The notes beneath the pieces were generated by a model. It had not been told where the DNA came from, ran no database searches, and saw nothing but the letters and a program-made list of their open reading frames with translations. 64,000 bases of DNA. Origin: Dehalococcoidia bacterium (lineage in GTDB: Bacteria; Chloroflexota; Dehalococcoidia; UBA6926). Below are positions 10,961-25,380 of this stretch, one piece after another (within the stretch, counting starts at the first letter, position 1; every line of letters starts with the position of its first letter). The stretch covers positions 12,456 through 76,455 of the forward strand of contig CBDCYO010000001.1 of NCBI GenBank assembly GCA_965224255.1, written 5' to 3'. The position numbers and the translations under genes were made by a program.

Positions 10961-11086
10961 ATGGCAGAGTTCATAAGCGAAGTCTGCCGCCGTCAGCAAC
11001 TTTCCGGCTGGCCGTCCCGAAGGACGTGCGGACCCGACCTGAGCCGAGCCGCCGAAAATAGCAGACTTGTACCCAAAGTCTGCCAT
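10961..11086. repeat. hairpin elements H5 (10961-10990) and H6 (11058-11086) upstream of hsdM
   Basis: atggcagagttcataagcgaagtctgccgc and atagcagacttgtacccaaagtctgccat. Confidence 0.7.
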
Positions 11087-11254: not shown

Positions 11255-13420
11255 ATGGTGCCTGTGCCGGAGAAAAGACGGGCGTGCAGGAGAGGCAAAC
11301 ATCCATTGATTGCGGACCACTTTACAGGTATCGAGAAGTTTGAGGCGGATCTGTGGAAGGTCGCGGACAACCTGCGGGCCAATTCGAACCTAGCGTCAAA
11401 TGAATACTTCATGCCCATCCTGGGCGTGATCTTCCTGCGGCATGCGACGAACCGGTACGATGCGGCGGTGGCAGCGATAGATGCAGAAAAGGCCACAGGG
11501 GATATGCCTGACCGCCCGCTGGTCGAGGCCGACTTCGCTAGGCGAGGCTCCATGATGTTGCCCGAGGCTGCGCGCTACGACGCCCTCCTAGAAATCCCGA
11601 AGGACGGCAATCTCGGAGCGGCCGTGAATGCCGCCATGGAGATGATCGAAGACCACTACCCGCCCCTACGGGGACAGCTGCCGAAGGATTACGCACACTT
11701 CGACAATGACGTCCTAGAAGAAATGATGCGAACCTTCGATTCGGAGGCACTCCGCAAGGCCTCGGGCGACGTGCTCGGCCGCATCTATGAATATTTCCTT
11801 GCCGAATTCTCGAAGCTAGGCGCGCACGACAATGGCGAGTTCTTCACGCCACCCTCAATCGTCCAGACCATAGTCAATGTGATCGAGCCGGATCACGGCA
11901 CCGTCTTTGACCCCGCCGCCGGTTCTTGCGGCATGTTCGTGCAAACGGGCCATTTCATTGAGGACAAAGGCGAAGACACAATGGAAAGGGTCACGTTCTT
12001 CGGCCACGAGAAGAACGAAACGACCGCTAAGCTCGCCCAGATCAATCTCGCCGTACATGGGCTACAGGGCAACATAAGGGCCGGAAATGAAGCGATCACT
12101 TATTACAATGACCCCCATGAACTGGTAGGGCAGTGCGATTTCGTCATGGCCAATCCACCTTTCAATGTGGACGAGGTTGACGAGGAAAAGGTGAAGAGTG
12201 ACCCACGCCTACCGTTTGGTTTGCCCGGGGTGAACAATTCCAAGAAGGTGTCCAATGCCAATTTTCTTTGGATGCAATATTTCTATAGCTACCTCAACGA
12301 GAACGGCCGTGCTGGCGTCGTGATGTCGTCGCAGGCATCAAACGCAGGAGGAGATCAGGCAACCGTGCGGCGAAAACTGGTCGAGAGCGGTGCTGTGGAT
12401 GTGATGGTCGATATCCGCAACAAATTTTTCTATAGGAATGCCGTCCCATGCCAACTCTGGTTCTTTGACCGGTCGAAAGAGCGGGATGATAACCGCCGTG
12501 ACCAAGTCCTGATGCTCGACGCGCGCAACATCTATCGCAAGGTCACAACTCGGATCTTCGACTTCAGTCCCGAACAGCAGAAGAACATCACCGCCATCGT
12601 GTGGCTCTACCGGGGCCAGTCGGAACGGTTCCTCAACCTAGTTGAGAGGTACCTCAGGCAGGCCATCGACGAAGGACGAGCGACTACTACGATGCTCTCC
12701 AAGTTCCAGGGGAGTTTGGACAAGCTTAGCGGTCTGGCGGAACCCTTCGCAACAGAGAAGCGTGATCCCGATCCGCTGCTCGAAACTTGGACGGAACTCA
12801 TCTCCACGAAGGATACGCTGTCGGCAGACGTTGAGGTTTTCGTGACCGAGGTAGCGGCGCGGACCTTTGAATGGGAGCAACGCGAGGACGGTTCCACGCG
12901 TGGGAACGCTGAACTGCACGTCGCGCGTGAAAGCTTGCGCGAAATGGCGGGGCACTGTCAGGACTTGACCAAGCAGGTCGATCTTGCCACGAGGTTGTCT
13001 GGGAGGGCTGTCGAGATCGCGACGAAGGAACTCGACGCGCGTAAATCTGAACTCTGGACCAATAGGGATATCAACGCTACGCGCAGGGAGCTTGAGGATG
13101 TACGAGTTGCAACCGTCGAAGCGCTGCGTCGGGCGCGGCACTACGTTCGTGAGGCCGACTGGCTGCAGGAGCGTTTTCCGGATGCCGGCCTGCGTGATGT
13201 CGAGGGGTTAGTGAAGTTGGTGGATCTGAGCGACATCGAAGCGCTTGATTGGAGTCTCACTCCTAGCCGCTACGTAGGACTCGCCCCAGAGGAGATGGAC
13301 GAGGATTTCGTTTTTGAGGAAACGATGCGGGCAATCCACATCGAAATGAATGAGCTGAACGAGGAAGCAGTGGAACTGGCGGCGCGGATCGCTCGGAACT
13401 TTTTGGAGTTGGGGGTGTGA
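11255..13420 (+). CDS. hsdM: Type I restriction-modification system DNA methyltransferase subunit HsdM (N6-adenine)
   Basis: FTPPSIVQTIV, DPAAGSCGMF (motif I), CDFVMANPPFN (motif IV) and an N-terminal HsdM_N-like helix (FEADLWKVADNLRAN). Alternative TTG start at 11308 after AGGAGAGG. Confidence 0.92.
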   Translation: MVPVPEKRRACRRGKHPLIADHFTGIEKFEADLWKVADNLRANSNLASNEYFMPILGVIFLRHATNRYDAAVAAIDAEKATGDMPDRPLVEADFARRGSMMLPEAARYDALLEIPKDGNLGAAVNAAMEMIEDHYPPLRGQLPKDYAHFDNDVLEEMMRTFDSEALRKASGDVLGRIYEYFLAEFSKLGAHDNGEFFTPPSIVQTIVNVIEPDHGTVFDPAAGSCGMFVQTGHFIEDKGEDTMERVTFFGHEKNETTAKLAQINLAVHGLQGNIRAGNEAITYYNDPHELVGQCDFVMANPPFNVDEVDEEKVKSDPRLPFGLPGVNNSKKVSNANFLWMQYFYSYLNENGRAGVVMSSQASNAGGDQATVRRKLVESGAVDVMVDIRNKFFYRNAVPCQLWFFDRSKERDDNRRDQVLMLDARNIYRKVTTRIFDFSPEQQKNITAIVWLYRGQSERFLNLVERYLRQAIDEGRATTTMLSKFQGSLDKLSGLAEPFATEKRDPDPLLETWTELISTKDTLSADVEVFVTEVAARTFEWEQREDGSTRGNAELHVARESLREMAGHCQDLTKQVDLATRLSGRAVEIATKELDARKSELWTNRDINATRRELEDVRVATVEALRRARHYVREADWLQERFPDAGLRDVEGLVKLVDLSDIEALDWSLTPSRYVGLAPEEMDEDFVFEETMRAIHIEMNELNEEAVELAARIARNFLELGV

Positions 13421-14637
13421 GTTTTCGAATACGGAAACTTGGCGAGCTGGGTAGATTTCGAAATGGCCTCAACTACTCGAGATCAAACTTCGGCCGTGGA
13501 CTAAAAGTGATCAGCGTCAAGGATTTCGGAGACCGCTGGAGACCTGAACTTGCCGTTTTGGATGAGATCGATCCGGCAGGGGTACGTGCAGCGCAGTGCG
13601 ATTTACGTCGAGGCGACATCCTATTTGTGCGCTCGAACGGAAATAAAGACCTGATCGGTAGATCAATGCTCATTGAGCATGATCTTGACGACGTCTCGTT
13701 TTCGGGTTTTTGTATCCGTTTCAGACCAGCAGAACCTGAGGATAAATCGAAGTTTTTGTCTCTCTATTTCAGAACACCCATATTCCGTCGGACGCTTTCT
13801 CTCCACGGCACGGGTACCAACATCAACAACCTCAACCAATCGATACTGGAGCAAATGGATGTACCATGGCCCGAAACGGTGGCACGAGAGCGTATCGTCG
13901 ATATTGCTGGAACCTACGACGGCTTAATAGAGAATAACCGGCGGCGGATTGAGTTGTTGGAGGAAACGGCGGGGGTGCTCTACCGCGAGTGGTTCGTCCG
14001 CTTCCGCTTCCCAGGCTACCAATACGTCAAGGTAATCGACGGCCTTCCGGAAGGGTGGGAGAGGCGGACATTCAATGATGTTTGCGATGCGGTGGGAGGC
14101 GGGACGCCCAAGACATCGCGACCAGATTATTGGACCGACGGCGATATCCCTTGGTACACACCCACAGACGTCACGCGCAATCCGTGCTTAGCCCTTCTGG
14201 ATAGCGCAACTAAGATAACGGAAGCAGGGCTGCGGGGATCGTCTGCAAAAATGCTTCCGGCTGGAACCGTGTTAATGACAAGTCGCGCGTCTGTTGGTTT
14301 CTTCGGAATTATTGAGGCTCCTTCGTGCACTAATCAGGGTTTCATCAGCATCGTCCCCAATGACCAATGCGCCAAGATGTATTTGCTCTACAACCTCATG
14401 CATCGGGTGGAGGAAATCCGGTCTCATGCTGGCGGTGCAACCTACAAGGAAATTAGCAAAGGGAAATTCAGGGCCTTCCCTATCGTGCTTCCCGAAGGGA
14501 CACTCCTTCAACAGTTCGAGAAGCAGGCATCGACACTTCATGCCCAAGTTCGTACACTTCATCAATCAAACCAGAAACTCGCACAAGCCCGCGACCTTCT
14601 ACTGCCGCGCCTGATGAGTGGGGAGATTACGGTTTGA
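13417..14637 (+). CDS. hsdS: Type I R-M specificity subunit HsdS (two target-recognition domains)
   Basis: GTG start overlapping hsdM stop (GTGA). Central conserved ERIVDIAGTYDGLIENNRRRIELLEE and C-terminal LLPRLMSGEI repeats; lower GC typical of TRDs. Confidence 0.9.
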   Translation: MSFRIRKLGELGRFRNGLNYSRSNFGRGLKVISVKDFGDRWRPELAVLDEIDPAGVRAAQCDLRRGDILFVRSNGNKDLIGRSMLIEHDLDDVSFSGFCIRFRPAEPEDKSKFLSLYFRTPIFRRTLSLHGTGTNINNLNQSILEQMDVPWPETVARERIVDIAGTYDGLIENNRRRIELLEETAGVLYREWFVRFRFPGYQYVKVIDGLPEGWERRTFNDVCDAVGGGTPKTSRPDYWTDGDIPWYTPTDVTRNPCLALLDSATKITEAGLRGSSAKMLPAGTVLMTSRASVGFFGIIEAPSCTNQGFISIVPNDQCAKMYLLYNLMHRVEEIRSHAGGATYKEISKGKFRAFPIVLPEGTLLQQFEKQASTLHAQVRTLHQSNQKLAQARDLLLPRLMSGEITV

Positions 14638-14674
14638 CGCCTGCTGCCGACACGAGCATATGAGGGAGTGAGCG

Positions 14675-17600
14675 ATGGCGGTGACATCCATCAACAGCGA
14701 AGACCGGCTGGTGCAGGTGACTTTTGCCCAGCACCTTGAGCAGGCGCTGGGTTGGGACAGCATCTACGCCTGGAACCAGGAAACCTTTGGGCCGGACGGC
14801 ACCCTGGGCCGTGCCAATACCAAAGAGGCGGTGCTGACCCGTGACGTGCGAGCAGCTCTGGAACGGCTCAATCCTGAGCTGCCGGCTTCCGCCATCGAGG
14901 ACACGGTGCGGAAATTGGCGGCCTATGACGTCAGCCGTTCGATGGTGCAGCATAACCGCGATTTCTACCGTCTGATCCGCGGTGGCGTTCCCGTCGAATA
15001 CCGCGACGACAAAGGCAGCCTCCGAACAGCCCGTGCCCGGGTGATCGACTTCGACAACGCACCGGGTACCAATCGCTTCCTCGCCGTGCGCGAGTTGAAG
15101 CTTACCGGTTTCCGAACGCCGAACTACAATCGCCGCGCCGATCTGGTCTGTTTCGTCAACGGCCTGCCGCTGGTCTTCATCGAGCTGAAGGCGGTCTACA
15201 AGAACATCCGCGAGGCCTTTGAAAACAACCTCTCCGATTACATGGACGAGAGAGTCATTGCCCATGCCTTCCACCACAACGCCTTCCTGATCGTTTCCAA
15301 CGGCGACCGCGCCCGTTTCGGCTCTATCACCAGCCAGTGGGAGCATTTCGCCGAGTGGAAGCGGCTCGATGAGGCGGACACGGGCAGTCTGGAAGCCGAG
15401 GTGTTGTTGAACGGTATGCTGGCCCATGACCGGCTGCTGGACATCGTCGAAAACTTCATCCTGTTCGACGACAGCAAGCCAGGCGCCACGCGCAAGGTGA
15501 TCGCTCGCAACCACCAGGTTCTGGGCGTCAATCGAGCCGTCGAGTCGGTTCGCCGGCAGGAAGAGTTGAAGCTGGAGTTCCCGCCAGTGCGGCGTTTGGA
15601 ACACCGCGTCGTGGAACTTCCGCTGGAATCCCGAATTCCCACCGAGCACGAGTTGATGCAGGGTCGGGCCCGAGCGGCGTCCCCTTTCATTCCAGCAGGA
15701 CCGATAGAAATTATCGAGCGGGCACATCCCGACCTCGGCCGGCTCGGCGTGTTCTGGCATACCCAGGGTAGCGGCAAGTCCTATTCCATGGCGTTTTTTG
15801 CCGAGAAGGTGCGGCGGAAGGTGCAAGGCAACTTCACATTCCTGCTGATGACCGACCGCAATGACCTTGATAGCCAGATCTACAGAACCTTCATCGGATG
15901 CGGCATCGCTGACAATCAGACACCGCGCGCCGCGTCGGGCGACGATCTGGAAAAGCGGCTGCAAGAAAACCCCAGCTACCTCTTCAGCCTGATCCACAAG
16001 TTCAACAAAGATGTCGATCCTAAACAACCGTACAGTGAGCGCGACGACATCATCGTCATTTCGGACGAGGCACACCGTACCCAGGCGGGACGGCTGGCGC
16101 GCAATATGCGCAACGCGCTGCCGAACGCGTCCTTCATCGGGTTCACCGGCACACCTCTGTTCACACAGGACGAGCTGACGAGGCGAATTTTCGGCGACTA
16201 CGTCTCGCGTTACGATTTCAAGCGGTCCGAGGAAGACGGCGCCACCGTCAAGCTGGTCTACGAAAACCGCGGCGAGATGCTGGGTGTCGCCCGGAAAGAT
16301 CTAAACGACCTGATCGCGGCCAAGATCGAGGAGGCCGAGCTCGATCCTGACCAGGAGGCGCTGCTCGACAAACTGCTGGGCCAGGACTACGAGGTGATCA
16401 CAGCGGATGCACGGCTCGAGAAGATTGCGGCCGATTTCGTCGAGCACTGTGCAACCCGATGGCAATCGGGCAAGTCGATGCTGGTCTGCATCGACAAAAT
16501 CACCTGCGCACGGATGCTGCAACTCATCGTACCCAGGTGGAAGGTGAAAGTCTTTGCGGTCCGCGCTGCAGCTGGAGCGAAGCGAGCGGAGGCCAAGGCG
16601 GCAAATGACGAGAGTGTCCGCGATGCCCTCGCGGAGCAAGCTCAAGAGCTGGCAGCCCAAGCCGATTGGCTGGACGAGACGATCGTCGAGATCATCATAA
16701 GCGAGGCGCAGAACGAGGTCTCCGACTTCAAGAAGTGGGGATTCGATATCATCCCGCACCGCGCCCGAATCAAGCAGGGTTTTGAGACGCCGGATGGCCG
16801 GCGCGTTGATGTTGAAGATGCATTCAAGGATCCGGATCATCCATTCCGTGTTGCCATCGTCTGCGCCATGTGGTTGACCGGTTTCGACGTGGAATGTCTG
16901 TCAACTCTCTACATCGACAAACCCATGAAAGCGCACAGTTTGATGCAGGCGATCGCGCGGGCGAACCGGGTCTATCCCGGAAAGGATTTCGGTCTGATTG
17001 TCGACTACAACGGCATGTTGAGAAGCCTGCGGGAGGCTCTGGCGCAATACGCCCTCGGCGACGATGGGGGAGATGACGGTCCGATCGTCGAGCCTATTGA
17101 GGAGCGTTTACAGGCACTGATCGAAGCTATCGAGGCGACGGAGGCACACCTTCGCGGCCTCGGTTTTGACCCGAGGTCATTAATCGGCTCGACTGGTTTC
17201 GCACGGATTAAGGGCCTGAAGGATGCAGTCGAGGCCGTTTACACCAGCGACGAGGATAAGCGCCGGTTCGAGGTGCTAGCCAGGCAGGTGTTCATTCGTT
17301 TCAAGGCGCTACTGACCGAACCTTCGGCGTTCGCCTACGCTGAGCGGCATGACAACATCGAGGCGATCTACAAGAAACTCGCCGAGCGGCGCGACACGGC
17401 GGACGTAACGGAGCTGCTCAAAGAACTACACCGGATAGTGAACGAGGCCATCCGCACTCAAGAGCCGGGTGAAGATCAGGCAGAGGGGTTGACCTTCGAT
17501 CTCAGCCAGATCGATATGGAAACACTGCGGGACGAGTTCGCGAAGAAGGTTCGCCGCAAGGCGACGACGCTACAAGACATTCGCGACATCGTTGAGCAAA

Positions 17601-18088
17601 AACTCGTTGAGATGCTCGCGCGTAATCCGTTGCGCATGGACTACCAACAAAAATATGAGGAGATCGTCGCGGCCTACAACCGCGAGAAAGATCGTGTCAC
17701 CATAGAGGAAACGTTCCGGCGACTAACCGAGCTGATGGTCGAACTCGACGCCGAACAGAGTCGTGCAGTACAGGAAGGCCTCGACGAGGATGAGTTGGCC
17801 CTGTTCGATCTGCTGAAGAAAGACGGTTTGAATAGGTCCGACCGCGAAAAAGTCAAACAGTCAAGCCGGGAACTCCTCAAGGCAATCAAAAAACGACTGG
17901 CCGAACTAGACCGATTCTGGGAGAAAGAGCAGACCAAGGCGGAAATGGAGGTATTCATCCTCGACGCAGTCTTCGTTAAACTCCCGACCTCGGCCTTTTC
18001 CTCAGAGGAAAAGCGGACAGTTGCCTCCGATGTTTATAACCACGTCTGGCAGCAGGCCCTCAGCCGCCAGTTTGCGATCGCGGCGTGA
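14675..18088 (+). CDS. hsdR: Type I restriction enzyme endonuclease/helicase subunit HsdR
   Basis: 1137 aa; TQGSGKS (Walker A), VISDEAHRTQ (DEAH), FTGTPLF motifs; RBS GAGGGAG upstream of ATG 14675. Confidence 0.95.
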   Translation: MAVTSINSEDRLVQVTFAQHLEQALGWDSIYAWNQETFGPDGTLGRANTKEAVLTRDVRAALERLNPELPASAIEDTVRKLAAYDVSRSMVQHNRDFYRLIRGGVPVEYRDDKGSLRTARARVIDFDNAPGTNRFLAVRELKLTGFRTPNYNRRADLVCFVNGLPLVFIELKAVYKNIREAFENNLSDYMDERVIAHAFHHNAFLIVSNGDRARFGSITSQWEHFAEWKRLDEADTGSLEAEVLLNGMLAHDRLLDIVENFILFDDSKPGATRKVIARNHQVLGVNRAVESVRRQEELKLEFPPVRRLEHRVVELPLESRIPTEHELMQGRARAASPFIPAGPIEIIERAHPDLGRLGVFWHTQGSGKSYSMAFFAEKVRRKVQGNFTFLLMTDRNDLDSQIYRTFIGCGIADNQTPRAASGDDLEKRLQENPSYLFSLIHKFNKDVDPKQPYSERDDIIVISDEAHRTQAGRLARNMRNALPNASFIGFTGTPLFTQDELTRRIFGDYVSRYDFKRSEEDGATVKLVYENRGEMLGVARKDLNDLIAAKIEEAELDPDQEALLDKLLGQDYEVITADARLEKIAADFVEHCATRWQSGKSMLVCIDKITCARMLQLIVPRWKVKVFAVRAAAGAKRAEAKAANDESVRDALAEQAQELAAQADWLDETIVEIIISEAQNEVSDFKKWGFDIIPHRARIKQGFETPDGRRVDVEDAFKDPDHPFRVAIVCAMWLTGFDVECLSTLYIDKPMKAHSLMQAIARANRVYPGKDFGLIVDYNGMLRSLREALAQYALGDDGGDDGPIVEPIEERLQALIEAIEATEAHLRGLGFDPRSLIGSTGFARIKGLKDAVEAVYTSDEDKRRFEVLARQVFIRFKALLTEPSAFAYAERHDNIEAIYKKLAERRDTADVTELLKELHRIVNEAIRTQEPGEDQAEGLTFDLSQIDMETLRDEFAKKVRRKATTLQDIRDIVEQKLVEMLARNPLRMDYQQKYEEIVAAYNREKDRVTIEETFRRLTELMVELDAEQSRAVQEGLDEDELALFDLLKKDGLNRSDREKVKQSSRELLKAIKKRLAELDRFWEKEQTKAEMEVFILDAVFVKLPTSAFSSEEKRTVASDVYNHVWQQALSRQFAIAA

Positions 18089-18473
18089 CGGGCCATCTTG
18101 ATGGGTTGATGACAGATGCCGAAACAAATGGAGATCCACCCACAGCAAATTGACCCCAATGCATCCCGCTTGTCGTGCAGAGGGTAGCGTAGATGCTACG
18201 AACCGGTTGATGCCGTATGCTGTTCTTCATGTGGCCCAGCGCAGTTTGCACTTATCACGACCGGACATACGCAGAGCGCACGGGCAGTAGCCGAGACTGG
18301 GTGCCCGCCGCCGCAGTGCACCTTAGTTCAAACTATTGCAGTTTGCTTGAACTTTATCCCAGCGTCTCCTCTTAGTGCCGTCAAAGTTTCAATAGAAGTT
18401 GCCGTTCTCCAAATCCCAAAGGCGGGTACGGTTGCTACTGCAGGCACGGGGACAGGGCCGGATTCCTTGCACG

Positions 18474-18502
18474 ATGGCAGACTTTGAACGGAAGTCTGCC
18501 AT
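18474..18502. repeat. hairpin element H7 between convergent hsdR and the Dam-ParB-nuclease cassette
   Basis: atggcagactttgaacggaagtctgccat, perfect 11-bp stem. Confidence 0.8.
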
Positions 18503-18652
18503 GCTGGTTCAGCCGGCAAACCGAATGATCAACTCAATTCGCTGCGAGTACGGTTCCGCTATGGACTTCTGCCGGAGCATGTCAATCGACTTAACAGCCT
18601 TGGGTGAGTTGACGGACTATTGCATCCAGCCAACCCTGAGATCGTTGAGTAA

Positions 18653-19618
18653 TCAAACCGCAGGCAATCCATTGGCGATGGCGGCCGCTCGTGTCCAAGC
18701 AGACATGTATGCCAGGGTCTGGGACGAAATTGTTTCGCATAACTCGATTACTCGCGACCGATCGAACAAAATGCCGGCGTACGTAGACCTCTTGTACCAA
18801 CGGTCTTCGGGCAACTCATCCGTGATGAAAAACATGCGGACCGGGTCAACTGCTGGCATGCTGTCGAACCAATTTTTACAAAACGCATCGGGCTTGAGCC
18901 TTGTGAATTGTTCTTCGTAGTGGGTGCCGGTTTTACATTGCCCGAATCCAATCAACTTGCCTTGTCTGTCGTCGTTGAACGGATTCCAGACCACCACATC
19001 AAGTCCATCATCTTTTGCTTAGGGATTGCCGCCCGATCTGTTTTTGTAGGTACTCCCTTCACCTATTTGCTGACAAAGCGCCTTCACCCGGTCTGAAAAG
19101 CTTCGAGTATCACTGGATGTACCGAACACAAAGCTTCGGGACCCGTCTCCGAAATATCGACTAGCGACCTCTGCACAAAGTTGCTCGAATAATTCAGTCC
19201 CATCAATGCCCGCATGCTTCTTGTTTAGGTTCATATCCAATCGGGTTGCCAAGAGCAAATATTTGTACACGGTTTGGCGAGGGTTGCCGCCGCCCTGGCG
19301 CCATTGAAGTGAACTACCAGTGTGGTCCAACTCGAAAGGATACCCTGAACCGTACGCTTCCGTGCGTTCTTCGACGAGCTCGAATGCTCCCTTCACCCAC
19401 TCATACAATTCGTCGATTTCGAGAACGCCGTTTGCATGGTCGTTCTCTTCAGGTTTGGCTAGTTGGTTAGAGACGTGCCTATCGGACGCCATGCCACTTT
19501 GCCAAGATATGAGCTCACTGAAATCTGCGACGTCCAGTTGCCATGCCAGTAGTTCGTTGTAGTCTGCTTGGTCTTGGTCAGTCGGTCGAGCTGGAAGTTC
19601 CTTGGGCCATTTGAACAC
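18653..19618 (-). pseudogene. PD-(D/E)xK-like putative nuclease interrupted by one in-frame TAA (ORFs 19019-19618 and 18653-18997 are in the same frame)
   Basis: GTG start after GAGGTGA RBS, 13 bp downstream of the ParB-like stop. ...STYKNRSGGNP*AKDDGLDVVVWNPFNDDRQGKLIGFGQCKTG carries a D...(Q)xK PD-(D/E)xK-like motif. Confidence 0.4.
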
Positions 19619-19630
19619 GGGTGGTCACCT

Positions 19631-20731
19631 CTACGGTCGCGAGGGCTGAGGCCTTGGTGAAGCGAATTGTTTGCGCACCATCTCTGCGTGAAGGTCCGTA
19701 GCTAAAGCGACGACTCCATCAGCAGTCGCAAGCAATTCGCCGGATCCGTCATACCCGTCTGATAGCATTGCCCGCGCCTCACGCAAGCTCTCCATGGCCG
19801 CGACCAAGGATTCCTCGAATCGATTAGTCGGGGGACGACTCGCCGCAAACGCCGCTTGGAGGTTGCTCGTATTGCGTAGACTGGCTACCGCCGACCGATT
19901 TCCCAGTACTGCGTCCAATTGACGGAGGTGTGGGTTCTGGGATCGTATGATGGGACGTGCATCCTTGCGCTTACTACCGTATAACCATAGGCATAGTTCA
20001 CCAAGTTCCGTTCGTTTTTCCGAAGGGACGGGCTCCGGGTCCTCCGCTTCCTCTGAGGTCAGTCCGATATACGAACTGATGCCAGGATAATCTAGTCCCG
20101 TATAAAGATGGGAGAATGAAAAATGTCGGTGCCACCGATCTTCGCGGCGAAAAACCTCCCAATCCTCAGCTTGTTCGATAACTTTCAGCCCACGAAAAAG
20201 CCTCTGGACCGTGTTGTGGTTGTCGCCAATCTGCTGCGCGATCTGTACCAAAGAGACGTTGAAGGTTTGGTTGACCGAAGCGACATATCGTGCTTTTGCG
20301 TAGCTGCCCCACTTAGCTGGACCGTTGACGTGTTTGAAACCGAGAAACCTCCAAGTGTCTTCTCGCGTATCTATCAGACAAGGTAGGCGGTTCAGCCCAT
20401 CAAGTAGGTCGGCCGCAATCGTCGGGATATTGGCTTTCACCTGCCGGGCGACGGCGGGGTCCCTGATTGCCTTGACTGCTGCCAGCCGACGGTTTCCTTC
20501 GATAACGACAAATTTGTCTGACTCCTCCACCACGATTAGAGGCTCGTGTCGGAAGAACCCGCTGGCCGTGATGGACATCACTAATTCCTGCACATCCTCC
20601 GTTTCCCACAGTATCTTGATGATGTCCATTTCATTTTGGATCGGCGAGTCGAAAAATTCGGCAAGCCTCGGATTCTTCACATCGAACTCGAGTTGGTCGA
20701 CGTCGATGTCGGTAACCGTTGGCGTAGTCAT
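19631..20731 (-). CDS. ParB/Srx-like nuclease-domain protein with HTH-like region
   Basis: HEPLIVVEESDKFVVIEGNRRLAAVKAI matches the ParB GxRR box. ATG overlaps the Dam stop (ATGA at ~20728-20731). Confidence 0.75.
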   Translation of the reverse strand: MTTPTVTDIDVDQLEFDVKNPRLAEFFDSPIQNEMDIIKILWETEDVQELVMSITASGFFRHEPLIVVEESDKFVVIEGNRRLAAVKAIRDPAVARQVKANIPTIAADLLDGLNRLPCLIDTREDTWRFLGFKHVNGPAKWGSYAKARYVASVNQTFNVSLVQIAQQIGDNHNTVQRLFRGLKVIEQAEDWEVFRREDRWHRHFSFSHLYTGLDYPGISSYIGLTSEEAEDPEPVPSEKRTELGELCLWLYGSKRKDARPIIRSQNPHLRQLDAVLGNRSAVASLRNTSNLQAAFAASRPPTNRFEESLVAAMESLREARAMLSDGYDGSGELLATADGVVALATDLHAEMVRKQFASPRPQPSRP

Positions 20732-21630
20732 GGCGTTTGCACCATCTGTTGGTTGGGTATTGGCTCGGGACCGCAGGATGAAACCCATGCGGACGGGCGT
20801 TGCACGTAAGGTGGCGTAATCAGCAGTTCGAACGTTTTCTTCTTCTGTTGCAAGCTATATTGCAAACCAATATCCGAGATATTGCAGTCGGCGTAGAGCC
20901 CTCTGATTAGTTGGGAGTCATCGTATGAGGCTACCCATTGGACCGATTGCTGTCGCCGCAAGTACCGAGCGAGTTTGCCGTGGTCTTTTGTGTCGTAATC
21001 GTTCAAATACAGGCGACTCCCCTTCGAGACGTAAGGTGGATCCAAATACACGAAGACCTGCTTGCGGCGGTTACCTTTAGGAAGGTGGGTAGTCAAGAAT
21101 CGCAACGCGTCGTCATTGGTAACCTGGATTTGGTCTCGCTGTTCAGCAACTCGGACGATTCGTTCAGCGAGGGCTTGCCGGTTGAAACGCGCATCCATGC
21201 GCCACGTTCCAGTCTGGGAATATCCGCCTATCGGTGCCGAACCGAGCAGGATGCCAGAGCGATTGCACCGGTTCAAATAAAACGTGGCAAATCCGAGATC
21301 GAACGTGCTATGCAGGGTTGGTTGTAGGCAGATTTCTTTTTGCTTTCGCCATTGGTTTACGTTCAATTCAACCGACATGATCGCATCGGCAAATCGTTCA
21401 TGTTCGTTGAGAATAGCCTGCCAGAACGCGTAAATCTTCGGGTCGAGATCGTTCAGCAGTAACTCAGAAACCACGCCCTCGCGCAAAAGCCGAAGGGCTG
21501 CTCCGGCTCCGCCTGCAAACGGTTCGAAGTATCTACATTCCCTGAGACCGTTGGTTTCTATGAAACAACCCAATAGACCGGCCAGCGAACCCTTACCTCC
21601 CGGATAACGTAAAGGGCTATACGTTCTCAT
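20728..21630 (-). CDS. Dam-like (D12 class) N6-adenine DNA methyltransferase
   Basis: N-terminal LRYPGGK, FEPFAGGAG and DPPY motifs diagnostic of the Dam/MethyltransfD12 family. Confidence 0.9.
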   Translation of the reverse strand: MRTYSPLRYPGGKGSLAGLLGCFIETNGLRECRYFEPFAGGAGAALRLLREGVVSELLLNDLDPKIYAFWQAILNEHERFADAIMSVELNVNQWRKQKEICLQPTLHSTFDLGFATFYLNRCNRSGILLGSAPIGGYSQTGTWRMDARFNRQALAERIVRVAEQRDQIQVTNDDALRFLTTHLPKGNRRKQVFVYLDPPYVSKGSRLYLNDYDTKDHGKLARYLRRQQSVQWVASYDDSQLIRGLYADCNISDIGLQYSLQQKKKTFELLITPPYVQRPSAWVSSCGPEPIPNQQMVQTP

Positions 21631-21953
21631 GCCAACTCGACTTTGCCGTACTAATTGCGGTCATTCTAATCGAATTCAATTGGAAACAACAAAGACTGCC
21701 AGGCTCTCGGGAACCTGGTCTGGCCTGTAACGCGGGACACGATTGCGGGCGCTACCTAACAACCTCGAGCTACGACGCTGCCCACCGACGCCACGTAGTT
21801 GCGATTGGAGTCGAACGGCGAGTCCAGATAGATGAGGTAGACCGACGCTGAATTGAGGCCGCACGAGATGCCCAGGTTGTCCCCTGTCCAAATGGTTCGA
21901 TCGGCAGAATTGGTCATGGGAAAATGCCAACTGGACAGTCGAGCGATGGCAGA

Positions 21954-22063
21954 GTTTGAGCACAACTCTGCCACTTTTGTTGGGTCTGCGGTGGCCTCTA
22001 CTCGGAGGCCATCTGGTGACAATGGGTCCTTTTGGCAGAGTTAGTCTGAGTGTATTCTGCCAT
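21954..22063. repeat. hairpin elements H8 (21954-21982) and degenerate H9 (22031-22063) between Dam start and integrase fragment
   Basis: atggcagagtttgagcacaactctgccac; tttggcagagttagtctgagtgtattctgccat. Confidence 0.7.
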
Positions 22064-22602
22064 CATGGAAGTACCACATTACTGGACTGCCGGCCAGGTG
22101 GGCCGTCTGCTGGACGCGCTGGCGGCGCACAATCGGCATCAGGCTCGCACCGCGGTGCTCATCATGTGGCGCACCGGCTTGCGGGTAGGCGAGGTCCTCG
22201 AACTCGAGTGGCGAGACCTCGACTACTGGGGTCGTCCGGAAGTCGAAGAGCCGGCGGGCTCGCACGGTGCGCTTGCATGGCGACCTGGTGCAGCTGTTCG
22301 CGAACTGGCCGTCCAGCCGGTCCCCGCGGGACAAGGTTGTGGGCCTGGCGATGCGGACGACGCTGCGGCACATCGCTGACGGCATCGGGTGGGCGGACTT
22401 GGACGAGGAATCCCCAGGTACTGGGAAGCGGCGCGCTGGTGCCCATTCCCTGCGGCACAGTACTGCCAGGCATTGGCTGATGGTCGGGAAGGTTCCGCTG
22501 AACGTGGTCTCGCAATGGCTTGGCCACGCGAATCTCCAGGTAACGCTCCGGATCTACCTGCCCATCGTGGGCAGCGACTACGGCATGGATGCTGTGCCGT
22601 AG
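22050..22602 (+). pseudogene. tyrosine recombinase (phage-integrase family) catalytic-domain fragment, frameshifted
   Basis: TGLRVGEVLELEWRDLD (first catalytic Arg region) then, in another frame, AHSLRHSTARHWL...LGHANLQVTLRIYLP (HxxR, H, Y). N-terminal DNA-binding domain absent. Confidence 0.7.
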
Positions 22603-23645: not shown

Positions 23646-23930
23646 GTGTTACTCCGCTTTAAGGTGGTGGCGCTGTCGATGCGGAGTGCGCTGCGTCACA
23701 TTGCCGACGGCATTGAGTGGGCTGGTCTCGATGAGGAATCTCCAGGTACGGGTAAGCGACGTGTACGAGCTCACAGCTTGCGGCACAGCGCGGCTCGGCA
23801 CTGGTTGATGGTTGGGAAGGTCCCACTGAACGTGGTTTCGCAATGGCTGGGCCATTCCTCTGTGCAGATCACCCTGCGAATTTACTTGCCTATCGTGGGG
23901 AGCGACTACGGCATGGAATCTGTTCCGTAA
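23646..23930 (+). pseudogene. second tyrosine-recombinase C-terminal fragment (paralogous to 22330-22602)
   Basis: AHSLRHSAARHWLMVGKVPLNVVSQWLGHSSVQITLRIYLPIVGSDYGMESVP is about 85% identical to the first fragment. Confidence 0.65.
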
Positions 23931-24519: not shown

Positions 24520-25380
24520 GAACCTGTCTACGATCTCTGAAATAGGTTAAGCTGAGACTATTATCAGGGGAGGGGTAATCATGTCTCATTCCTATTCCAG
24601 CGACATCAGCCGGGAGCAATTCGTCCGGATTCTGCCGACGTTGGAGTCGGCCCGACGCCGGACCAAGCCCCGCACCGTGGACTTGTATGACGTTTTCTGC
24701 GGCGTGCTGTACCTCTTGAAAAGCGGGTGCCAGTGGCGAATGCTGCCCGCGGACTTCCCCAATTGGCGTACTTGCTACCAGTATTTCCGGCAATGGAGCG
24801 AGCGGCCTGGCCCGGGTCAGGATTCCATTCTGGAGCAAGTCCTAAAAAAAATCGGTTGGCGCGGCCCGACAAAGCAATGGACGGAAAGAGCAGACCAGCT
24901 TCTGTATCGTGGACTCCCAGAGCGTCAAGAACACGGACACCGCTGGGCACAAGGGCTATGACGCAGGCAAGAAGGTGTCGGGAATCAAGCGTCATATCGC
25001 GGTGGACACGCAAGGATTGCCCCATGCGATACACGTGACTACCGCCGACGTCACCGACCGGGCCGGGGCTTTGGCGATGTTTGACCGGCGCCGAGACGGC
25101 CTCAGTCAAGTGCAGAACGTGCTGGTGGACGGGGGTTACACCGGAAAGCCCTTTGCCACTGCGGTGCAAGGCCTGTTGGGAGCCTCGGTGGAAGTGGTGA
25201 AACGCAACGAACTGCACACCTTCGTGGTGCTGCCAAAGCGATGGGTGGTGGAGCGGTCTTTCGCCTGGCTGGAAAAGTGCCGCCGACTCTGGAAGAACTG
25301 CGAAAGGAAGCTCAATACCAGCCTGCAAATGGTGGTGCTTGCCTTCACGGTGCTAATCCTAAAAAGATTGTAGACAGGTT
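24520..25380 (+). mobile_element. IS5-family (IS427-group-like) insertion sequence with TTA target duplication
   Basis: Terminal IRs GAACCTGTCTAC / GTAGACAGGTTC flanked by tta on both sides; about 860 bp. Confidence 0.85.
24581..25373 (+). CDS. IS5-family transposase, OrfA-OrfB joined by programmed frameshift
   Basis: OrfA MSHSYSSDISREQF...CQWRMLP; OrfB ...GIKRHIAVDTQGLPH...VLVDGGY...WVVERSFAWL; A8 slippery run at about 24843. Confidence 0.8.

Follow-up and report, generated by a model that had tools for sequence, protein, structure and literature searches.

The gene set at this locus, in which an adenine-specific DNA methylase, a ParB-like protein and a disrupted candidate nuclease are encoded side by side on one strand, raises the question of what these genes do together and in what state they persist. 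We analysed the locus within a 64,000-nt stretch of a Dehalococcoidia genome (referred to here as the window) and compared it with homologous loci and with described defence systems. The genes belong to a widespread, uncharacterised cassette family that is related to PD-lambda-5 of Escherichia coli and most likely provides restriction-modification (R-M)-type defence. We further judge it probable, if well short of certain, that the block in the window is a decayed copy of a mobile, three-gene, R-M-like anti-phage cassette that works as proposed below.

Cassette layout and genomic context

Inspection of the open reading frames showed that the three minus-strand genes are real and are arranged as a first-pass annotation had described, including an ATGA overlap between the methylase stop (TGA) and the ATG of the ParB-like gene (20729-20731). 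The features of the cassette are as follows (window coordinates).

18472-18501, no strand: hairpin repeat GGCAGACTT-TGAACGG-AAGTCTGCC of direct-repeat family D1, at the low-coordinate end of the cassette, 150 nt beyond ORF3
18653-19618, minus strand: ORF3 pseudogene, 321 codons with a GTG start, predicted winged-helix and PD-(D/E)xK nuclease
19019-19021, minus strand: premature TAA at codon 200 of ORF3, CAA (Gln) in near-identical copies
19631-20731, minus strand: ParB-like protein, 366 aa, intact
20728-21630, minus strand: D12-class (Dam-like) N6-adenine DNA methyltransferase, 300 aa, apparently intact, PD-Lambda-5_B family
21756-22022, minus strand: 88-aa ORF, mostly within the hairpin-bounded unit and running across the 21944-21973 hairpin
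21944-21973, no strand: second hairpin copy, 83% identical, high-coordinate end of the cassette

ORF3 extends from a GTG start at 19616-19618 through 321 sense codons to a TGA stop at 18653-18655, with one in-frame TAA. The first-pass annotation had reported this single stop, but placed it 3 nt away, at 19016-19018. It was also right about a GAGGTGA sequence ahead of ORF3, which overlaps the TAG of the ParB-like gene, although the spacing between the two genes is 12 rather than 13 nt. The lower GC content it had noted is present (0.525-0.536 over 18-22 kb versus approximately 0.60 for the window), but the difference is modest, and GC drops just as far elsewhere in the window. The flanking hairpins and the integrase remnant that it mentioned are real, the latter as fragments at 22050-22602 and 23646-23930, and a complete Type I hsdMSR adjoins the cassette, with the integrase fragments and an IS close by. 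A sigma-70 promoter scan gave no match, and terminator-like sites did not exceed shuffled expectation. No tRNA or Rfam family was found within the window, which therefore offered no clue to an attachment site, and its palindrome statistics were uninformative (GATC observed/expected 0.79, not distinctive).

The hairpins bound a mobile unit. Seven copies of the repeat occur in the window, versus 0.01 expected, and homology to two near-identical cassettes elsewhere (L001, a 99%-identical sister copy, and L008, 97% identical) stops at 18473-18475 and 21976-21978; both of those cassettes have the same hairpins at both ends. We did not adopt an integron reading of these hairpin-bounded cassettes, the hairpin being only ~27-30 nt long and the recombinase short and degraded. 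Judged by eye, the 88-aa ORF may be what is left of a beta-class methylase N-terminus (…VYLIYLDSPFDSNRNY); neither this ORF nor the 182-aa ORF that corresponds to it in L001 had a Pfam match.

Predicted functions of the three proteins

The methylase carries the motifs RYPGGK, FEPFAGGAG and YLDPPYV, among them the SAM-binding and catalytic motifs of a Type II R-M methyltransferase (FEPFAGGAG and DPPY). It matched Pfam MethyltransfD12 (PF02086) over its full length (1.7e-17) and PADLOC model PDLC04018, PD-Lambda-5_B, at 4.9e-101, with residues 1-280 aligned to profile positions 1-277 of 291. In 45 loci the ParB-like gene is immediately preceded by a methylase orthologue with 55-62% identity.

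The ParB-like protein consists of an N-terminal ParB/Srx nucleotide-binding fold, a central helix-turn-helix that resembles those of ParB and KorB, and a C-terminal helical domain. Its homologues are 366-368 aa long and begin at the same methionine. The match to Pfam ParB_N was weak (4.7e-4, under the gathering score). The protein contains VIEGNRRLAAV, with a P-motif at G79-N80-R81-R82, and shows both features of the ParB-CTPase fold, the ParB/Srx fold at the N-terminus and the arginine of the GxxR P-motif. Most of what is known about ParB-type nucleotide switches comes from chromosome segregation. In a survey published in 2025, the ParB fold proved to be widespread on mobile elements, where most of its roles are unknown (PMC12704722).

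ORF3 was modelled as a winged helix followed by a PD-(D/E)xK nuclease with the motif D207...Q227-x-K229, at modest fold scores. The first-pass annotation had recognised the D...QxK motif, and its QxK stands, but the catalytic aspartate is more likely D207 (in LDVVVW), 20 residues before Q227-x-K229, than the 'NDD' that it had quoted. E145, D207, Q227 and K229 are invariant in the family. A D...QxK arrangement is catalytically competent in MspJI, in which D334A and Q355A abolish activity (PMC2938202). Searches of Pfam, NCBIfam and PADLOC gave no match for ORF3, and its profile drew only chance matches from PDB sequences (E > 0.5). The family is nevertheless large (907 matches when clustered at 90% and 2364 representatives when clustered at 50%), and a homologue search with the ParB-like protein returned more than 3700 matches; neither ORF is a chance reading frame.

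The TAA at codon 200 lies upstream of the D207...QxK core. A codon-by-codon comparison found CAA at this position in both L001 and L008, and an intact ORF3 protein of 321 aa (P0001) was recovered, so the interruption is a genuine CAA to TAA change relative to two intact alleles.

Distribution and synteny of the cassette

To place the locus in context we compiled 82 distinct loci from many phyla, 80 of them from one-genome-per-species representatives. With two exceptions, one of them cut by a contig end, ORF3 came immediately after the ParB-like gene; in 59 of 72 loci its start shared 1 nt with the ParB-like stop, and the trees of the two proteins were broadly congruent. In approximately 80% of loci a methylase lay next to the pair, as a rule within one operon, where the genes were spaced by 0-60 nt or overlapped by ATGA. 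The three genes therefore form a conserved, translationally coupled cassette, as the first-pass annotation had proposed, and the intact three-gene versions for which it had suggested a search were found in 59 of the 82 loci, in different species and including L008 (a count made after two false 'broken' calls had been corrected).

The methylase itself was exchangeable. Partners included D12 lineage 1, D12 lineage 2 (on either strand), an N6_N4 enzyme (L086) and, in P2-like phages, a C5 enzyme. Eleven of the 82 loci, from different species and including a coherent alphaproteobacterial clade, retained both the ParB-like gene and ORF3 intact, and no DNA methylase was found within flanks of ~5-6 kb on each side. 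The longer ORFs beside these pairs were housekeeping genes (CoA-transferase, amidohydrolase, GGT) and not methylases, and a tblastn search combined with a [DNS]PP[YFW] motif scan revealed only two methylase remnants (L028 and L071). In three loci (L001, L013 and L079) the methylase was broken and both partner genes were intact; in L001 it is split by an IS. Overall, a broken methylase went with broken restriction genes in 3 of 6 loci, and an intact methylase did so in 1 of 60 (Fisher p = 0.0017), a statistic that could equally reflect decay of the whole cassette. The first-pass suggestion that a toxic nuclease had been disabled, leaving the methylase, is accordingly overstated and describes one possible history, given the opposite state of L001 and the 11 methylase-less pairs.

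Relationship to known systems

PD-lambda-5, an anti-phage system of E. coli that includes a methylase, has been validated by experiment (Vassallo 2022, PMC9519451). The window methylase is a full-length member of its B family, and the N-terminal ParB-like module is shared with PD-Lambda-5_A of Paracoccus phage Pkon1 (26% identity over ~175 residues); both kinds of cassette reside on mobile elements and in defence hotspots. The A component, however, differs. PD-Lambda-5_A proteins are 430-590 aa long, whereas the last ~190 residues of the 366-aa window protein have no match to A, and the best PD-Lambda-5_A model (5.8e-20) covered profile positions ~14-176 of 473 only. A true PD-Lambda-5_A (L089:1570-2889) matched PDLC04000 over its full length (2.2e-147) and aligned with the window protein over residues 9-169 only; searched against Pfam and the PDB it gave no matches, leaving its C-terminal part undefined. 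PD-lambda-5 also has two genes, A then B, whereas here the order is methylase, ParB-like gene and a coupled third gene, ORF3, which shows no similarity to PD-Lambda-5_A (hhalign probability 0.2).

A homologous trio occurs in P2 defence hotspot #1, between portal gene Q and gpA, in Wphi (gp98-gp96-Mth), in vB_EcoM-12474III (gp04-06) and in 36 complete E. coli genomes (e.g., O145:H28 RM13514). Its ParB-like protein is homologous over the full length (hhalign probability 99.9, E 4e-34, 329 columns) and its second gene is homologous to ORF3 (hhalign probability 92.6, E 4.6e-7, 239 columns), with the same pair order and a methylase attached. Identities are only ~30% (ParB-like) and ~22% (ORF3), the QxK lysine aligns with a glycine, and in place of a D12 adenine enzyme the trio has a C5-cytosine methylase, encoded on the opposite strand. 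The first-pass view that this is not a described architecture thus needs amending, since the pairing of methylase and ParB-like protein is of the PD-lambda-5 type and the P2 hotspot trio is already annotated. Its genes are annotated merely as hypothetical, and we found no study of them; searches of the literature for a ParB, methylase and nuclease trio, for Wphi orf96/orf98 and for the P2 hotspot returned no description of the trio or of a three-gene form with a 366-aa ParB-like protein and a separate nuclease.

Type II R-M systems with a PD-(D/E)xK endonuclease offer a second comparison: as here, a methylase and a nuclease of that fold (predicted in our case) share an operon, within a mobile unit whose methylase can be swapped and whose parts decay jointly. 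They differ from the cassette in that an obligatory ParB-like third component is coupled to the nuclease here, and in that the ParB-like/ORF3 pair sometimes lacks an adjacent methylase. GmrSD, SspE and BrxU (a DUF262 ParB-like NTPase with a DUF1524 HNH nuclease) resemble it in outline, with a ParB/Srx-fold NTP module coupled to a defence nuclease, and SspE also operates alongside a DNA-modification module; Pfam matched neither DUF262 nor the DUF1524 HNH domain in the cassette. Mrr/MspJI enzymes are similar at the fold level only, as ORF3 had no Pfam match at E <= 1 (Mrr_cat, PF04471, included) and an hhalign probability of 0.2 with EcoKMrr; modification dependence of that style is not indicated. 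We consider the cassette a three-gene variant of an R-M-like, PD-lambda-5-type system, inactive in the window, with a mechanism that we propose from these comparisons.

Proposed mechanism and alternatives

In the proposed mechanism, the D12 methylase would place N6-methyladenine on the host's own DNA, and the ParB-like protein and ORF3 would act as a two-subunit restriction module. The ParB-like subunit would bind DNA through its helix-turn-helix and use its ParB-type nucleotide-binding site as a switch, and the ORF3 subunit would combine winged-helix DNA binding with a PD-(D/E)xK (D...QxK) core that cuts unmethylated incoming DNA. The data establish the structure of the genes, their families, the fold predictions, the synteny, the existence of intact alleles and the bounded mobile unit; from these we infer a defence function, methylation-based discrimination of self from non-self, NTP dependence and complex formation. 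Speaking for this reading are the identity of the parts, the synteny, the R-M-like exchange of methylases, the linked decay, the pseudogene status and the defence context, both beside the Type I hsdMSR of the window and in the P2 hotspot; the methylase-less pairs, the loci with only the methylase broken and the glycine at the QxK lysine of the P2 homologue speak against it. A single C to T change (CAA to TAA, codon 200) truncates the window nuclease ahead of its predicted catalytic core; the restriction arm would therefore be dead, with the methylase and ParB-like genes intact. More tentatively, and with the odds against it, the ParB-like protein could be an NTP-gated clamp (CTP or other) at unmethylated sites, whose closing or sliding recruits or licenses the ORF3 nuclease; the first-pass annotation had raised a CTP-dependent clamp or a nickase partner as candidate roles.

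The alternative that deserves most attention, though we hold it unlikely, is that the ParB-like/ORF3 pair works on its own in defence or abortive infection, sensing infection or foreign DNA regardless of methylation, with the methylase as an exchangeable accessory (e.g., epigenetic cargo, anti-restriction protection of a mobile element or an independent orphan). The methylase-less pairs form persistent clades, the pair outlasts a broken methylase in L001, L013 and L079, the same core is accompanied by different chemistries (m6A and m5C), and PD-lambda-5 itself was described as 'RM+Abi' by Vassallo et al. (PMC9519451). A simple R-M system that is lethal without its methylase predicts neither methylase-less pairs nor broken-methylase loci, unless a methylase elsewhere in the genome protects. 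Such a methylase could indeed cover the methylase-less cases, and both the adjacency of a methylase in most loci, mostly within the same operon, and the correlated decay of methylase and pair argue against self-sufficiency. It is improbable that the ParB-like protein instead serves the modification arm, loading or targeting the methylase as a split ParB-methyltransferase fusion and leaving ORF3 alone as the restriction enzyme. Phages and prophages often carry ParB-CTPase folds fused to DNA methyltransferases (PMC12704722), and in the window the start codon of the ParB-like gene lies across the methylase stop; against this, ORF3 is the constant partner of the ParB-like gene, whether the methylase is exchanged, inverted or missing, and the recurrent 1-nt overlap likewise joins the ParB-like gene to ORF3.

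We give similarly little credence to the pair being a modification-dependent, Type IV-like enzyme (cf. split GmrS/GmrD and Mrr/MspJI) beside a methylase of non-overlapping specificity. Pfam matched none of Mrr_cat, DUF262 and DUF1524, the hhalign probability with EcoKMrr was low, the predicted nuclease is PD-(D/E)xK rather than HNH, and a methyl-dependent enzyme would run a risk from the close operonic linkage with a methylase that most loci show. It is highly improbable that the ParB-like gene is an ordinary partition or plasmid-maintenance gene sitting beside an R-M pair by chance. The ParB N-terminal fold, the ParB/KorB-like helix-turn-helix and a weak TIGR00180 match recall such proteins, but that match scored 37.1 versus a cut-off of 58.45, there is no LG(K/R)GL ParA-binding motif at the N-terminus, the operon neighbours are the methylase and ORF3 rather than ParA, and the loci are chromosomal, spread over dozens of phyla and accompanied by ORF3.

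Implications for phage defence

The window strain has probably kept methylation and lost restriction through a pseudogenised defence cassette. For the wider family, a full-length ParB-like protein is tied to a dedicated (predicted) nuclease and, usually, to a methylase, on a large scale: the 50%-identity clusters of the nuclease family have no Pfam, PADLOC or NCBIfam match. If the clamp reading is true, the cassette would represent a class of restriction that uses a ParB switch as its NTP engine, not a helicase or translocase, and that extends across many phyla, including the E. coli P2 prophage hotspot. The P2 prophage trio makes the cassette directly testable in a model host, and its characterisation would supply a mechanism for the still unexplained PD-lambda-5 class, reveal the role of the ParB switch in immunity and annotate thousands of 'hypothetical' genes.

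Gene layout and protein families

The cassette consists of three minus-strand genes, the first two coupled by an ATGA overlap that places the gene 2 ATG on the gene 1 TGA:

20728-21630, minus strand: gene 1, methylase, 300 aa, with motifs RYPGGK, FEPFAGGAG and YLDPPYV
19631-20731, minus strand: gene 2, ParB-like, 366 aa
18653-19618, minus strand: gene 3 (ORF3), 321 codons with one in-frame TAA

ORF3 starts with GTG 12 nt past the gene 2 stop, which is overlapped by GAGGTGA. A 385-aa ORF was rejected as the form of gene 2 because its homologues (366–368 aa) begin at the methionine of the shorter form. The first-pass annotation had described this arrangement correctly apart from small coordinate errors, the TAA lying at 19019-19021 rather than 3 nt away at 19016-19018. 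GC content was 0.525–0.536 over 18–22 kb versus ~0.60 for the whole window, with several other stretches of the window equally low.

Gene 1 is a D12-class adenine methyltransferase (PF02086, 1.7e-17) and a full-length member of the PADLOC family PD-Lambda-5_B (4.9e-101). Upstream of it, an 88-aa ORF (21756-22022, minus strand) ends in ...VYLIYLDSPFDSNRNY, resembling the N-terminus and motif IV of beta-class DNA methylases. This ORF found no support in Pfam, and its 182-aa counterpart in L001, a near-identical copy of the cassette, diverges directly past the motif; the ORF is possibly what remains of an older methylase.

Gene 2 is a ParB-like protein. Matches to ParB_N in Pfam (4.7e-4) and to TIGR00180 (37 bits, cut-off 58) were sub-threshold; G79-N80-R81-R82 is invariant and lines up with the nucleotide-binding box (GERR) of H. 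pylori ParB, and the central region resembles the DNA-binding domains of ParB, KorB and SopB as well as sigma region 4. No informative match was found for the helical C-terminal region. Many PD-Lambda-5_A profiles match gene 2, only on their first ~170 of ~470 positions, and a genuine PD-Lambda-5_A (Paracoccus phage Pkon1) shares 26% identity with it over residues 9–169 only. The earlier view that this is not a partition protein held, and partition is a less likely role for the cassette.

ORF3 had no match in Pfam, NCBIfam, PADLOC or PDB sequences. Its family is large, with 907 proteins in a 90%-clustered collection and, in clusters at 50%, 2364 representatives. Almost all have 300–330 aa and a single architecture, and in the family alignment E145, D203, D207, D216 and F225-G-Q-C-K-T-G231 are invariant. 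Foldseek ranked MspJI first (probability 0.99). In ORF3, D207 stands at the start of a strand and Q227-x-K229 follows 20 residues on, at the end of the next strand, the D-X20-QxK arrangement on which catalysis by MspJI depends, its D334A and Q355A mutants lacking activity (PMC2938202). At the sequence level ORF3 falls outside the Mrr family (hhalign probability 0.2 against EcoKMrr). The nuclease fold proposed earlier for the third ORF is well supported, at modest fold scores that stop short of proof.

Premature stop in the window copy

Two loci, L001 and L008, carry the cassette at 99.2% and 97.2% DNA identity to the window, respectively, and in both the codon at 19019-19021 is CAA instead of TAA. 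The intact 321-aa protein P0001 departs from the window translation at just two residues, one of them a glutamine where the stop stands. From this codon-by-codon comparison, the stop probably arose as a single C→T transition. This stop is upstream of both D207 and QxK, and an internal GTG ORF of 114 aa begins past D207, so a catalytic fragment cannot be made. The window copy is a pseudogene and in that respect ordinary; alternatively, the TAA may be an assembly error or a polymorphism. The first-pass annotation had read it as the disabling of a toxic nuclease, a history that is not established because the sister copy L001 lost its methylase instead. In L001 the situation is reversed: an IS3-type element (HTH_21/rve; L001:4980-6205, ENA ERZ21829562, contig ctg258042l) splits the methylase at a point matching window ~21321-21323, and the ParB-like gene and ORF3 are whole. 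L001 is also ~930 bases longer at the site corresponding to window 21794/21795.

Mobility and genomic neighbourhood

Homology between the window and L001 and L008 was limited to 18473-21978, with unrelated flanks. Each end of the homology falls on a copy of a hairpin repeat that also bounds the cassette in those two loci; the cassette therefore travels, or is swapped, as a unit of ~3.5 kb bounded by hairpins. The core hairpin, TGGCAGA-N13-TCTGCCA, occurs seven times in the window versus 0.01 copies expected by chance, three copies near 2.1 kb being spaced by 96 nt:

1482-1508, 2055-2081, 2151-2177, 2247-2273: hairpin copies 1–4
11059-11085, 18475-18501, 21947-21973: hairpin copies 5–7
18472-18501 and 21944-21973: 30-nt hairpin repeat copies at the two homology ends
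11255-18088, plus strand: complete Type I restriction-modification system (hsdM 11255-13420, hsdS 13417-14637, hsdR 14675-18088)
22050-22602 and 23646-23930, plus strand: degraded short tyrosine-recombinase genes

Hairpins at 11059 and 18475 bracket the hsdMSR module, and those at 18475 and 21947 the cassette. The repeat was also found outside the cassette in L001 and L008, and in none of 88 other loci. Given this distribution and bracketing, the hairpin looks like a lineage-specific REP-like element delimiting exchangeable defence modules. The complete Type I system and the cassette are convergent, so the region forms a small defence island.

The recombinase gene at 22050-22602 is frameshifted into two ORFs, and its C-terminal fragment visibly resembles that of the copy at 23646-23930. 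Their transcription, divergent from the hairpin-bounded cassettes, is reminiscent of an integron, although attC sites are far longer than these hairpins. Beyond these fragments, two overlapping ORFs of 126 and 154 aa (24581-25373, plus strand) resemble, on visual inspection, a frameshifted IS5/DDE-type transposase.

Conservation of the pair and exchange of the methylase

A scan of one genome per species yielded 80 loci from Dehalococcoidia, other Chloroflexota, Binatia, Acidobacteriota, Latescibacterota, Spirochaetia, Nitrospirota, Rhodothermales, and Alpha- and Gammaproteobacteria; from their names, we take several of the records to be sponge-symbiont bins. Adding loci from exact protein look-up and removing identical repeats gave 82 distinct loci for scoring. 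The ParB-like gene lay directly upstream of ORF3 in 80 of them (one of the two exceptions is cut by a contig end), the ParB stop overlapped the ORF3 start by one base in 59/72 loci, and the two protein trees were broadly congruent. All three genes were intact in 59/82 loci, counting as intact two apparent breaks where alignments extended beyond the natural stop, which bears out the suggested conserved co-occurrence of the trio.

Methylase state at 85 loci, including five repeats of one protein set
Orthologue of the window enzyme, directly upstream, same strand: 45 loci
Fragment of a window-type orthologue: 6 loci
Second D12 lineage (25–30% identity), either strand: 20 loci
No match to the D12 query: 14 loci

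Among the last 14, one has an N6_N4 methylase and two have methylase remnants; no recognisable DNA methylase was found in 11 within the ~5–6 kb searched on each side. Housekeeping genes adjoin the pair in those methylase-less loci checked. Methylase-less loci with an intact pair include L038, L061, L066, L072 and L078 (Alphaproteobacteria MAGs forming one clade in both protein trees) and L015, L018, L069, L070, L077 and L085. Restriction-arm genes were broken in 3/6 loci with a broken methylase versus 1/60 with an intact one (Fisher p = 0.0017), the pair remaining intact beside a broken methylase in L001, L013 and L079.

A related trio in E. coli P2-like phages

The ParB-like protein and ORF3 matched PHROGs families labelled 'unknown function' (phrog_3694, 8.5e-79, and phrog_14650, 7.6e-21), which tblastn located in P2-like phages:

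L091:96-3266: phage Wphi trio (gp98, gp96, Mth)
L092:3504-6540: phage vB_EcoM-12474III trio (gp04-gp06)

Both trios place a ParB-like gene, an ORF3-like gene and, convergent to them, a C5 cytosine methylase between portal gene Q and replication gene A, at the site known from Vassallo et al. and Rousset et al. as P2 defence hotspot #1. Profile comparison confirms that the window and phage versions are homologous (ParB-like, probability 99.9, E 4e-34; ORF3, 92.6, E 4.6e-7); in the phage ORF3 the QxK lysine aligns with glycine (GQCGA). In 36 complete E. coli genomes, O145:H28 outbreak strains among them, this exact phage trio is present, annotated as 'ParB N-terminal domain-containing protein / hypothetical protein / DNA cytosine methyltransferase'. 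The two hotspot papers do not comment on this trio.

Interpretation

The cassette is most parsimoniously read as a restriction-modification-like defence whose invariant core is a two-gene restriction module, the ParB-like protein and a winged-helix/PD-(D/E)xK nuclease, the methylase being exchangeable. Methylation would protect self, the ParB-like subunit would be a nucleotide switch that binds DNA, and the nuclease would cut unmodified DNA. The main difficulty for this reading is the intact pair in methylase-less or methylase-broken loci, which keeps alive the alternative that the pair works independently of methylation; we consider that alternative unlikely. A Type IV-like activity and a role of the ParB-like protein as methylase helper are less likely still.

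The cassette is a three-gene relative of PD-lambda-5. The methylase family and N-terminal ParB module are common to both, but two features that define PD-lambda-5, a full-length A protein and a two-gene layout, are missing from the cassette. The earlier claim of an undescribed architecture overlooked both PD-lambda-5 and the annotated P2-hotspot trio. The family that the cassette reveals is large and unnamed; it is coupled to a ParB-type switch and lends itself to direct testing in E. coli.
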